Part shown: positions 724 through 61,584 of the stretch, piece after piece
How the letters are laid out: every line of letters begins with the position of its first letter
Numbering within the stretch: position 1 is the stretch's first letter
DNA from: Eledone cirrhosa
Lineage: Eukaryota
NCBI GenBank assembly: GCA_964016885.1
Contig: OZ024748.1
Span: 12,958,001-13,022,000, forward strand
DNA: 64,000 nucleotides
Direction: 5' to 3'
The notes under the pieces: generated by a model
Databases searched by the model: none
Told to the model about the DNA's origin: nothing
The model's input: only the letters and a program-made list of their open reading frames with translations
Program-made: the position numbers and the translations under genes

Positions 724-913
724 ATAGGAACGAGTAGGACCCCGACGGCCGAGGTCAAGCCGATTCGACGGCTAATTCTGGACGCTAATGTCCAGAATTA
801 GCTAGAGCTCGGCCGTCGGGGTCCTACTCGTTCCTATTACCCACTCTACTACCCTAAGTATTGAGTACTTTGGTGCGTTATGGTCCACCTGGTTTCTTAC
901 CACATTTCCTTCG

Positions 914-916
<3 letters not shown>
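724..916 (+). mobile_element. Family A hairpin-plus-tail element in (TA)n
   Basis: Inverted repeat 724-837 (ataggaacgagtaggaccccgacggccgag...ctcggccgtcggggtcctactcgttcctat; right arm partly deleted), then the conserved tail tacccactctactaccctaagtattgagtac...cttcgtta; (TA)n on both sides. Confidence 0.85.
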
Positions 917-1001
<85 letters not shown>

Positions 1002-9761: not shown

Positions 9762-10276
9762 CGCGTGTGTACGTGCCTATGTGTATGTCTGTTGGTATGT
9801 ATACGTATGTATGATTGCGTGTTAATGTGTGTGTGTTTGCGTGCGTGCAAACTGAACAAAACGCCAATTAGAAGTTTATTACTTTCTTTATTCATTTATT
9901 TATGATTTTCTAATGTTTCTGAGTCAACGCAACTTTCACTTTCAAATAATATATATACTCATATATACAAATGACTGAATGGATTGTTGTTGTATTGAAC
10001 GATGTGCATTCAGTCGTTGAAACAACGTAACTGCCCCCTTATAGAACAATATTATAAGAAGCTGAGTTTTGTTGGTAAAATTATAAACCTTACCTATACG
10101 AGAATGGAAAATAGAATCTTTAAAACAACGAATACTTCAGAGACGCTATATATTATATATATTTTAGATAAATGATCATTAGCATATTTAGTCCAGACTA
10201 AACTTCTCTTAGGCTAAACAGTATTACGGAAACTGTTAATTAAAGGTTTACTCTTTTACCTGTTCCAGCCATCCGG

Positions 10277-15216: not shown

Positions 15217-15287
15217 TATTTTATTATGCGCATTTCAAAAACAAATATCATCATGCAATAACATTTGCGTTTTCGTCAGATAAAATA
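15217..15287 (-). ncRNA. Type I hammerhead ribozyme (family B)
   Basis: Minus strand UAUUUUAU-CUGACGA-long stem II-GAAA with palindromic stem III AUGCGCAU, then A and AUAAAAUA. Confidence 0.8.
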
Positions 15288-15916: not shown

Positions 15917-16110
15917 GGGTGTGGTAAAATACCAAGTGGACCATAACCTCCCAGAGTACTTGATACTTGGGCTAGTAGAGTGGTTAATATGAAAAGAATC
16001 AGGACCCCGAGGGCTGAGCTCCGGCCGTTTCGATAGCTAGATCCAAACTGTTCGGATATAGCTGTCGAAACAGCCGGAGCTCACCAGACGGGGTCGTGAC
16101 TTTTTTTCAT
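15917..16110 (-). mobile_element. Family A (subfamily 2) hairpin-plus-tail element
   Basis: Tail gtgtggtaaaatacc..ggaccataac..gagtacttgatact..gtagagtgg, then inverted repeat atgaaaag..gaccccg..gagctccggccgtttcga / tcgaaacagccggagctc..cggggtc..ttttcat. Confidence 0.8.
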
Positions 16111-18592: not shown

Positions 18593-18705
18593 CTAGTTGT
18601 TGAAACGGCCAGAGCTCAGCCGTCGGGATCCTGAATTTTTTCATATTACCCACTCTACTACCGCAAGTATCGAGTACTCTGGTGCGCTATGGTCCACCTG
18701 GTATC
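18593..18705 (+). mobile_element. Family A (subfamily 2) single arm plus tail
   Basis: gaaacggccagagctcagccgtcggga..tcatattacccactctactaccgcaagtatcgagtactctggtgcgctatggtccacctgg. Confidence 0.8.
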
Positions 18706-19071: not shown

Positions 19072-19153
19072 ATCTCTCGGACAGATTATCCCTAATCTGT
19101 TTCGCCCTGAGTGTGTTTGTAACAGATAATCCTGGGCTTCATCAGCGAGAGAT
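19072..19153 (-). ncRNA. Type I hammerhead ribozyme in a (TA)n-flanked ~320-bp element (18925-19245)
   Basis: Minus strand AUCUCUCG-CUGAUGA-(A)-GCCC...GGGC-GAAA; stem III ACAGAUUA-GGGA-UAAUCUGU; C (GUC); CGAGAGAU. Stems I and III are perfect 8-bp helices. Confidence 0.88.
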
Positions 19154-25438: not shown

Positions 25439-25912
<474 letters not shown>

Positions 25913-26519: not shown

Positions 26520-26588
<69 letters not shown>

Positions 26589-26642
26589 AACAAGTATGAC
26601 CCCTTCTGATGAAGGTTAACGCTTGAAATAGCAGGAAGAGGG

Positions 26643-26678
26643 TCTTAACGTTTCCGACGCTAGTCCTTCATCAGAAGA
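26643..26678 (-). ncRNA. Minimal Penelope-type hammerhead (family E)
   Basis: UCUU-CUGAUGA-A-GGAC-UAGC-GUCG-GAA-ACGU-U-AAGA; stem III is reduced to palindromic ACGU. Confidence 0.65.
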
Positions 26679-26939
26679 AAGAAAGAGAAATAAGATAGAT
26701 TGAAGGGACGAGCGGGGTGGAATTTGAAAAAAAATGTCTTTAAATAAAAATAACAGGTCCTTTCATGTTGACATCTCTTGGAAAAAGTTAGGTAAGAGTG
26801 ACACAATGACAAATGCGACCAGAGGCATGTTGCACCAGAGGCAGACTACAACAATGAAAAATACAGACAGGTTAAAGACAAACCTGAATACATACAGATT
26901 AACATTCGTCTTTAAGTATTTTTCGTTGTTGTAATATTA

Positions 26940-40661: not shown

Positions 40662-40840
40662 GTGAAAAGATTCAGAACCCCGACGGCTGAGCTCCGGCCG
40701 TTTCGACAGCCAGTCCGCGACTAGCTGTCGAAACAGCCACATCGCACCCGTCGGGGTCCTGAATCTTTTCATATTACCCACTCTACTGCTCCAAGTATCG
40801 AGTACTCTGGTGGGTTATGGTCTAGCTGGTTTTTACCACA

Positions 40841-40845
<5 letters not shown>
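40662..40845 (+). mobile_element. Family A (subfamily 2) hairpin-plus-tail element
   Basis: tgaaaagattcagaaccccgacgg...ccgtcggggtcctgaatcttttca plus the conserved tail. Confidence 0.85.
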
Positions 40846-49915: not shown

Positions 49916-50110
49916 ATAGGAAAAAGTATGACCCCGACGGCAGAGTTCAAGCCGTTTCCACGGCTATTTCTGGACAGAAATAGCCGTCGAAACGGCTTGA
50001 GCTCTGCCGTCGGGGTCATACTTTTTCCTATTTCCCACTCTACTACCCTAAGTATTGAGTACTCTGGTGCGTTATGGTCCATCTGATTCCTTACCACAAT
50101 TCCTTTGTTA
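49916..50110 (+). mobile_element. Family A hairpin-plus-tail element (most complete copy)
   Basis: 116-bp palindrome 49916-50031; right arm holds GAAA(49989-92)-ACGGC/GCCGU-C50011-GGGGUC; tail runs to (TA)n. Confidence 0.9.
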
Positions 50111-50237
50111 TATATATATATATATGTATATATATATACAGTATTTACGTATCGAGAAAGAGAAAAAAAGGGGAGGATAGGTGATACATATAGTTATTTA
50201 CCAAGTAGCGTATGCCAATATATATATATATATATAT

Positions 50238-53416: not shown

Positions 53417-53503
53417 AAGTGTGTGGGAAGAGAGTTCCAAGGGTGTGTAGGGGGGGGGGGGGGTGGAGAGACATATAGAAAAAAGGGGGTATATATATAT
53501 ATA

Positions 53504-53698
53504 TAACGAAGGAAGTGTGGTAAGGTACCACATGGACCATAACGCACTAGAGTAATCAATACTTAGGGTAGTAGAGTAAGTAATAGGAGAATGTTTAACC
53601 CCGACAGCAGAGCTCAAGACGTTTCGACAGCTATTTCAGACCAGAAATAGCCGTCGAAACGGCTTGAGCTCTGCCGTCGGGGTTAAACAATCTCCTAT
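53504..53698 (-). mobile_element. Family A hairpin-plus-tail element
   Basis: Tail followed by palindrome 53583-53698; (TA)n on both sides. Confidence 0.9.
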
Positions 53699-54855: not shown

Positions 54856-54860
<5 letters not shown>

Positions 54861-54992
54861 AACCAGTAAGACCCCGACGGCTGAGTTCAAGCCGTTTCGA
54901 CGGCTAATTCTGGACTCACCCACTCTACTACCCTAAGTATTGAGTACTTTGATGCGTTATGGTCCACCTGGTTCCTTATCACATTTCCTTCG

Positions 54993-54994
<2 letters not shown>
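54856..54994 (+). mobile_element. Family A element with one arm deleted
   Basis: Left arm joined directly to the tail (ctggac|tcacccactctac). Confidence 0.85.
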
Positions 54995-55065
<71 letters not shown>

Positions 55066-58916: not shown

Positions 58917-58949
<33 letters not shown>

Positions 58950-58951
<2 letters not shown>

Positions 58952-59059
58952 ACGAAGGAAATGTGGTAATATACCAGATGGACCATAACGCACCAAAGTA
59001 CCAGAATTAGCCGTCGAAACGGCTTGAGCTCAGCCGTCGGGGTCCTACTCGTTCCTATA
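58950..59059. mobile_element. Family A element, internally deleted
   Basis: Tail end fused to the outer arm (caaagta|ccagaattagccgtcgaaacggc...ttcctat). Confidence 0.85.
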
Positions 59060-61183: not shown

Positions 61184-61499
61184 TACCCTAAGTATTGAGT
61201 ACTTTGATGCGTTATGGTCCATCTGGTTCCTTACCACAACACCTTCATTATATATATATATATATATGCAATGATATTAAATAAATGGAAACTATATTTA
61301 TAAAACCATATTTATTCTATTATATATATTTCAAAGGTACCAAAAATTACCTTTGAAATATATATAATAGAATAAATATGGTTTTATAAATATAGTTTCC
61401 ATTGATTTAATATCATTGCATATATATATATATAACGAAGGCGTTGTGGTAAGGAACCAGATGGACCATAACGCATCAAAGTACTCAATACTTAGGGTA
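61184..61499. repeat. 316-bp composite palindrome (family A tail - (TA)n - family C half HHR, then its mirror image)
   Basis: Centre aaaggta-ccaaaaat-tacctttgaaa at ~61343; arms include both families. Confidence 0.9.
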
Positions 61500-61584
61500 G
61501 TAGAGTGAGTAATAGGAGAAAGTATGACAGAAATAGCCGTCGAAACGGCTTGAGCTCTGCCGTCGGGTTCATACTTTCTCCTAT
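61433..61584 (-). mobile_element. Family A element with partly deleted arm
   Basis: Tail plus ataggagaaagtatgac|agaaatagccgtcgaaacggc...catactttctcctat. Confidence 0.85.

Follow-up and report, generated by a model that had tools for sequence, protein, structure and literature searches.

The window, 64,000 nucleotides of the Eledone cirrhosa assembly, holds at positions 49916 to 50111 an insertion whose parts are listed below. Signed positions refer to an intact, asymmetric element found elsewhere in the genome, in which +1 is the A at L115:5726, a base within the final portion of the 31-nt loop II of its hammerhead ribozyme.

49916 to 50111, plus strand: complete insertion, in which the 5′-terminal part of the element RNA is copied twice, head to head, within a (TA)n tract
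49916 to 49975, minus strand: tail-less arm, the intact element from +61 back to +2 by blastn; putative cDNA 1
49973 to 49977, no strand: head-to-head junction with a single shared C
49975 to 50111, plus strand: tailed arm, the intact element from +5 to +141; putative cDNA 2
49978 to 50016, plus strand: 3′ half of a type I hammerhead, from the fold of the intact element
49978 to 49988, plus strand: stem II, 3′ strand
49989 to 49992, plus strand: GAAA
49993 to 50009, plus strand: stem III and its loop
50010 to 50011, plus strand: UC
50012 to 50016, plus strand: stem I, 3′ strand
50011 to 50012, plus strand: predicted cleavage position (+41/+42), elsewhere in the genome the centre of a second class of palindromes
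50029 to 50031, plus strand: putative priming site 1 (TAT, +59 to +61)
50032 to 50111, plus strand: 80-nt one-sided tail, the last bases of which form putative priming site 2 (TAT, +139 to +141)

Both outer ends of this copy stop at TAT followed by (TA)n, and between them the insertion forms a hairpin with 56-bp arms and an 80-nt extension on one side only. The palindrome proposed in an earlier, sequence-only reading was recovered as described, its fold having an energy of −89.4 kcal/mol (z −19.9) which none of 200 shuffled sequences equalled. The right arm is, as that reading had claimed, the 3′ half of a hammerhead, with the 3′ strand of stem II, GAAA, stem III, UC and the 3′ strand of stem I all present and with a self-complementary stem III loop, while the 5′ half, and with it a complete core, is absent from the stub. 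In the intact element the tail belongs to the 5′ leader that precedes the next reading frame. The same junction recurs in flipped orientation at other loci (e.g. L010). Our junction parser admits a subfamily variant, so that some printed positions are off by one base (2/4 in place of +2/+5 for this copy), a shift that does not alter which arm is longer; blastn ends at ‘+144’ take in three flank bases, the true end being +141.

Nine places in the window had been assigned to this family. All of them hold family sequence, but near-complete two-armed palindromes were found only at 15917, 40662, 49916 and 53504, whereas the tailed arm starts late at 724, 54856, 58950 and 61433 (at +25, +63, +89 and +45, respectively) and the copy at 18593 is one-armed. 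The other copies, including pieces not listed before, and a relevant copy of a second family are as follows.

724 to 917, plus strand: tail-less arm to +2, filler, tailed arm from +25
15920 to 16105, minus strand: two-armed copy, older subfamily
18599 to 18702, plus strand: one-armed older copy
25572 to 25710, minus strand: family K, a separate hammerhead family with a CUGAUGA core and a similar tail motif
26584 to 26603, minus strand: previously unlisted arm with only +42 to +61, starting at the predicted cleavage position
40662 to 40843, plus strand: two-armed copy, older subfamily
53503 to 53698, minus strand: two-armed copy
54856 to 54996, plus strand: non-overlapping pair, tail-less arm to +1 and tailed arm from +63
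58949 to 59058, minus strand: non-overlapping pair, tail-less arm to +4 and tailed arm from +89
61184 to 61251, plus strand: previously unlisted tail-only piece, from +74
61432 to 61584, minus strand: tail-less arm to +5, tailed arm from +45

The pair at 54856 to 54996 contains no palindrome and has the layout of L1-type twin priming. At 26584 to 26720 the +42 to +61 arm is joined via a short inverted filler to another, common hammerhead family that is also present at 1415, 49306 and 52094, and at 61184 to 61476 the tail-only piece is set tail-to-tail against the 61433 copy, with flanking DNA duplicated in inverse orientation between the two tails. Two more pairs of minimal hammerheads arranged head-to-head, belonging to other families and carrying a whole core on both arms, lie at 15279/15364 and 27731/27808, and single hammerhead motifs at 19145, 40573 and 41127; an Rfam scan of the window gave no hammerhead among the matches listed (150 of 446). 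The minus strand at 10275 to 10392 matches 5S rRNA with 67.5 bits, against an Rfam gathering score of 38, and is likely a pseudogene or a 5S-derived repeat.

Genome-wide, perfect 13-nt arms were found around a centre of 2 to 30 nt at 13,896 loci and around a centre of 31 to 60 nt at 1,763 loci, and the reversed control pattern gave 0 loci. This 3.0-Gb assembly thus holds more than 15,000 short mirror-image stubs. Locally the density was about one insertion per 11 kb (57 match clusters, a few of them spurious, in 614 kb). A multi-gap pattern matched at least 43 loci, 30 of the 43 serving only as an oriented sample.

The sequence-only reading had predicted an asymmetric master element with a CUGANGA-bearing 5′ half. 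A master does exist, in the form of an intact 3.5-kb element, but its core is not CUGANGA. All 27 matches to the CUGANGA pattern in the genome were inspected and rejected; they were junction fillers, arm remnants or neighbouring elements, and none was a hammerhead 5′ half. Upstream sequence contained in one of them led to long copies, these to a GIY-YIG-like end, and this in turn to intact tandem arrays. At L115 the master is arranged as a tandem array of 3531-nt units, and its open frame spans 784 codons and encodes 717 aa when read from the first ATG, the reading frame of the master beginning at +232. The 5′ junction of a tandem array in L118 (6171 to 9742) contains roughly 65 repeats of a 55-nt segment of the reading frame, produced by either repeated template jumping or later expansion.

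The 717-aa frame carries YRDDG and YIG motifs in the arrangement of a single-frame reverse transcriptase with a C-terminal GIY-YIG domain, the former being what we take the motifs to denote. On older copies the Pfam matches to GIY-YIG were weak and below the curated cut-off (E 0.003 to 0.006), Pfam and PDB searches with the intact frame gave no match, GIY-YIG included, and the 2049 relatives at E≤0.001 were nearly all unnamed. The frame does contain the motifs of the Hydra clade, namely RWR at 37, DKT at 117, CxCx5C at 572, CxxC at 670 and CxH at 698, and, as judged by eye, no CCHH; the (TA)n target and the 3′-end hammerhead expected of that clade were likewise found, as were the partial tandems, the inverted 5′-truncated copy and the one-sided tail that mark pseudo-LTRs. 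All these features, with RW[K/R] in the place of RWR, recur in the Hydra clade as described in the available part of PMC8557442. The present element differs in its unit of 3.5 kb (generally <3 kb there), its U3:A8 core (CUGANGA-type in five Hydra rows of that paper) and its 80-nt tail (30 to 40 nt there). Neither the CX2-5CxxC linker nor the DKG of the Neptune clade was found in the 717-aa frame, and assignment to that clade was rejected. So was a non-LTR retrozyme, which consists of non-coding tandem units each with a whole hammerhead (bioRxiv 10.64898/2026.07.22.740005, available part), since the stubs are single and hold half a ribozyme and the tandem form is protein-coding. On the grounds of its sequence, we regard the element as a young, abundant Penelope-like retrotransposon with Hydra-clade protein motifs.

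A complete type I hammerhead, whose core is of the U3:A8 kind and in which the 3:8 pair, G10.1-C11.1, GAAA and UH are all present, lies at the 3′ end of the master unit. It has a 4-bp stem III and a loop II of 31 nt, and its predicted cleavage position is +41/+42. The three-way junction was the minimum-energy fold in two subfamilies and was not more stable than shuffled sequences (z 0.12 and −1.25), and an Rfam search of the master gave no hammerhead match. Among 123 complete ribozyme matches in the retrieved loci, 45 of them distinct because arrays and overlapping loci were counted more than once, the cores were UUGAGAA (80), UUGAAAA (37), CUGAGAA (3) and UUGACAA (3), with U3 and A8 in 120. 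CUGANGA occurred in none, and the half that the stubs lack is therefore not the CUGANGA-bearing one that had been supposed. At L017:2647, L100:791 and L197:8383 a variant core combines C3 with A8 and goes with shared changes in stem II; it is perhaps a subfamily with an inactive ribozyme. The hammerheads of Penelope-like elements in the available part of PMC4209133 are similar in being type I, in having a stem I of 5 bp, a palindromic loop III and a long stem II in which a base close to the 5′ end is left unpaired, in U3:A8 covariation (Cercyon) and in the occurrence of motif pairs on opposite strands. The 4-bp stem III and the 31-nt loop II, which likely holds a transcription start site, set the present ribozyme apart from them. 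Hammerheads are not mentioned in the available part of PMC13282606.

Arms of this family end at +61 or at +141, each time at TAT followed by (TA)n, and the other TAT triplets within the tail are not used as ends. Blocks chosen without being centred on copies, 614 kb in all, contained 33 simple head-to-head pairs, and 31 of these combined one tail-less with one tailed arm. As a free choice of site would give like-with-like in half of the pairs, these figures argue for fixed and unlike ends. Long insertions were sampled as 20 consecutive endonuclease matches, one row that had already been retrieved being skipped. All 13 in which both ends were seen had one +61 arm and one +141 arm; six were one-armed (four ending at +61 and two at +141), and one, L227, had an end unseen. 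Hand-picked long loci also follow the rule, to which the exceptions were two both-tailed insertions (L197 and L258). Long insertions thus have the same ends as the stubs, and a stub is the smallest case of an ordinary insertion. When +1 to +235 was folded as a single sequence, no significantly stable structure was found at the two sites (z −1.29).

Arms had been said to match within a copy and to differ between copies, and this proved correct: in 51 of 56 short copies the two arms differed at no more than one of 11 diagnostic bases, against a mean of 15 copies and a maximum of 27 in 5000 permutations. In long insertions (18 given, 11 unbiased and 7 hand-picked, with L241 left out) the partner arm was the strict nearest neighbour in 14 of 17 informative cases, with two ties and one in which it was not the nearest; partner arms were 0 to 0.6% apart, compared with medians of 1.4 to 3.7%. 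The arms cluster by locus and not as left and right groups. Exceptions were L225, whose arms are 2.2% apart, and L183, which carries two subfamily variants. Three independent head-to-head joins to another hammerhead family were found near 1500 in L031, L040 and L044, and such joins need two RNAs or later repair. The partner family at these loci starts at the identical base each time, also with AGT. Gene conversion, spacer inversion or deletion after insertion could mimic part of the symmetry and of the arm identity.

Pairing by locus is not what would be expected of a non-autonomous MITE-like or SINE-like element multiplying from symmetric master copies. In keeping with such an element, 39 other scored loci are 94 to 98% identical to the 49916 copy, 38 of them over nearly the whole length, and most of the 30 near-identical loci retrieved share its centre, although these loci were chosen for their likeness. 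However, 63 short copies had 50 distinct centres, with blunt joins, overlaps of 1 to 4 nt or fillers and in both orientations, there is no terminal inverted repeat at the tail end as a MITE would have, and the ends are identical to those of the long coding insertions; we consider this origin highly improbable. The earlier view of a Penelope-like element whose arms are made anew at each insertion, which is not a MITE and which bears on inverted pseudo-LTRs, was upheld.

The same cannot be said of the proposed mechanism, in which the cDNA would fold back on the stem II hairpin, prime itself and thereby destroy the ribozyme. The loop of stem II had been named as the axis of the palindrome, yet only its last few bases lie at the centre and the loop as a whole is absent. 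Not one of 63 parsed short palindromes reaches more than 4 bases before +1 (−3 in script coordinates) and none contains the whole 31-nt loop or the 5′ strand of stem II. The centres that this set can show are limited, because 45 of the 61 stretches behind it had been centred on loci with a centre of ≤30 nt. The 5′ strand of stem II lies at −35 to −24, and the furthest point reached among 31 unbiased pairs was −12. Inspection by eye of the first 50 of the 1,763 long-centre loci, in rows of 80 letters, revealed none that retains the entire loop together with the 5′ strand of stem II. Some long centres hold long runs of A or T (e.g. G000:C1:18731497 and 44860422), which may be untemplated additions or captured poly(A). 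Folding back on stem II would explain why centres lie just 5′ of its 3′ strand, but not why in long insertions they lie anywhere, nor why one class of palindromes is centred at +42.

Family K also speaks against it. As had been noted, it keeps CUGAUGA and shares the tail motif, but it is a family of its own and not the master. The motif was measured here at 37 nt after the cleavage position, as against 40 nt in the present family. It forms 22 head-to-head pairs of the same layout, centred 5′ of the core, in which both arms keep the core; loss of the ribozyme is thus no part of the mechanism, and the fold-back cannot be said to destroy it. The copy of family K at 25572 to 25710 has a G at the cleavage position, where the L070 copy has an A, and its upstream part runs on to about 25915. 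Fold-back on stem II is refuted for the bulk of the copies, and as a general explanation we give it next to no credence. To judge from the sequences compared here, the 5′ half of the stub's ribozyme was likely never part of the RNA that was copied.

Any fold-back of a tailed cDNA requires the tailed arm to be the longer one. Among 63 short copies the tail-less arm was longer in 23, the tailed arm in 27, and both were equal in 13 (p 0.67); the corresponding numbers were 14, 11 and 5 in a second set of 30 and 6, 6 and 1 in the 13 long insertions. The frequent cases with a longer tail-less arm, among short and long insertions alike, therefore argue against fold-back. At L115/L116 a 286-nt tailed arm stands opposite a tail-less array of several units, and in long insertions the tail-less arm can be longer by kilobases, even in copies 100% identical to the master. 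The 26 youngest copies lean towards the tailed arm, which is longer in 14, the tail-less arm being longer in 8 and both equal in 4. Furthermore, 5 of 31 pairs have a tailed arm whose first base lies past +61, which leaves no palindrome to fold, and one pattern alone found 353 loci with non-overlapping arms genome-wide.

These observations also bear on a second form of self-priming, related to a proposal in the available part of PMC3846280, in which the cDNA started at +141 would run off the RNA 5′ end, fold back, be copied to +61 and join the target via TAT, later spacer inversions or deletions randomising which arm looks longer. The near identity of the arms within a locus, the fact that some fillers are snap-back-like repeats of arm sequence and the lean of the youngest copies (14 versus 8) are all compatible with it. 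It is difficult to reconcile with a tail-less arm that is longer in 6 of 13 long insertions, by kilobases and also in 100%-identical copies, with one-armed insertions ending at +61 (4 of 6), with non-overlapping pairs and the loop-less perfect palindromes that were also found, and with the other TAT triplets of the tail remaining unused as ends. We hold this route to be quite unlikely.

The intact master, the arm ends, the spectrum of junctions and the identity of the arms are best accommodated by programmed twin priming of one RNA from both target strands, which, as judged from these sequence features, is probably how the insertions arise. In the order of events that we favour, the endonuclease would cut both strands of the (TA)n target and the two target 3′ ends would each pair with a different UAU, that at +61 or that at +141. 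Both cDNAs would run to the RNA 5′ end or stall, the second displacing the first, their 3′ ends would be linked by end joining (blunt, with overlaps of 1 to 4 nt or with short fillers), and host repair would fill in the second strands. Target-site duplications are not visible in (TA)n. An mRNA from the element's own promoter inside loop II would leave a stub of 61+141 nt without the 5′ half of the ribozyme, because the priming sites lie so near the mRNA front that a transcript with an internal start can yield nothing longer; read-through RNA would give the long inverted and tandem insertions, and ribozyme-cut RNA the palindromes centred on +42.

Twin priming might also involve a pair of sister RNAs, kept together by a protein dimer or through their self-complementary stem III loops, one being primed at +61 and the other at +141. 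This variant would need no strand displacement, would account for the mixed arms of L183 and L225 and the joins at L031, L040 and L044, and is in line with the dimer predicted for the Poseidon protein (PMC11167929). On the other hand, even a 5′ end as rare as +42 is common to both arms, long arms are never partnered by a start-site stub (0 of 13), premature stops are more frequent in the tailed arm (beyond +20 in 12 of 31, against 2 for the tail-less arm), as if it were blocked on the same RNA, and the rule of one site each is left without explanation. We therefore rate two RNAs as an unlikely, though not negligible, alternative to the priming of a single one.

As regards the template, the longer arm ended at +1 or +2 in 39 of 63 short copies. 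In the first 50 of 2,836 loci at which both arms reach +1, the base before +1, read by eye, was the templated T in 66 of 100 arms, while 17 had G, 14 had C and 3 had A; of the 14 C, 7 reflect a G in the opposite arm and 7 are the first base of arm sequence that is repeated. Long copies had T in 28 of 30 at this position and no G. Many of the T ends stop at about −4. An untemplated G is the trace expected from copying a cap, although reverse transcriptases can also add an untemplated C without a cap. Both +1 and −4 lie in what we take to be initiator-like sequence, with a presumably TATA-like run 29 nt before +1. The centre of the palindromes is thus likely to correspond to the 5′ end of a putatively capped RNA, with the predicted start site inside loop II. 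In Drosophila Penelope the promoter lies inside the pseudo-LTR (PMC2377424, available part).

Programmed twin priming as outlined here would unite the two-strand extension and the two tail-bounding sites seen in vitro (PMC11167929) with the twin priming of L1 (bioRxiv 10.1101/2024.08.27.596794, available part). In Anolis Poseidon in vitro, both strands of AT-rich targets are likewise cut and extended, two internal start sites bound the tail, and uncut RNA is the main template; however, these sites are 7 nt apart and inside the frame, as opposed to 80 nt apart here, and are used alike for both strands without the pairing of strand and site that the unlike ends would reflect. Inverted insertions are not discussed in that study, which has no RNA ends at the ribozyme site (PMC11167929). 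In L1, as far as the available part of the preprint describes, both nicks also prime one RNA, the ends are joined by microcomplementarity, and deletion or duplication results according to whether the outer cDNA passes the inner primer. There the inner site is a chance match and duplication the minority outcome, whereas here the sites are fixed, two arms are the rule and the outer cDNA would usually pass the inner primer to the RNA end. The rotifer Adineta vaga has similar head-to-head inverted pseudo-LTRs with junction palindromes, a one-sided tail and microhomology at the 5′ junction, which the available part of PMC3846280 reads as self-priming, probably on an antisense template, in contrast to the sense template and two primers favoured here. 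In the available part of PMC8557442 the tail is ascribed to resolution by the endonuclease and the inverted structure is left undefined.

Inverted pseudo-LTRs, the tail, the ribozyme variant, the Hydra clade and the self-priming proposal (PMC3846280, available part) are already in print. Searches of the available literature found no printed twin-priming model of Penelope-like elements, and within the same scope neither the rule of one site per strand, nor stubs as copies of the mRNA front, nor the cleavage-centred class. The origin of the inverted repeats and tails of these elements is a named open question in the available part of PMC8557442 and was left open in PMC11167929. Counts from this family separate the models, and the favoured one is testable in vitro, since the family has a young driver gene that is still intact, a defined leader of 141 nt and a simple target. 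On balance, we incline slightly to the wider view that endonuclease-bearing Penelope-like elements normally integrate by programmed twin priming, with a dedicated priming site on the RNA for either target strand, that stub centres record RNA 5′ ends, namely a capped start in loop II and the ribozyme cut, and that promoter placement disables the ribozyme in the mRNA. If so, every insertion would be an inverted pair with a one-sided tail, with tens of thousands of palindromic stubs as the outcome. Annotators should bear in mind that a MITE-like palindrome which is abundant and lies in (TA)n can be the stub of a retrotransposon, with no need for a master of its own.

A further class of palindromes has its centre at the predicted cleavage position. 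In one subfamily 144 loci had centres of ≤14 nt at +42, and of the first 50 of these, read by eye, 21 stop at +42 in both arms with a filler, 19 are blunt joins there, which could equally be read as a 2-nt overlap, 4 have one arm ending at this position and 6 extend beyond it. A control window placed next upstream gave 43 loci, 39 of which were centred on the self-complementary hexamer of loop III. The +42 class is indirect evidence suggesting germ-line cleavage by the ribozyme and occasional copying of the cut RNA. Such evidence for cutting in the animal is lacking in PMC11167929 and in the available part of PMC4209133, which has none in vivo, and +42 stubs would, if the wider view is true, be fossil proof of germ-line cutting by the ribozyme. 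In the subfamily of the 49916 copy, 10 of 18 loci stop at +42 in both arms, and the retrieved loci of this class had a clear tail on one side in 13 of 15 cases, a partial one in 1 and tails on both sides in 1.
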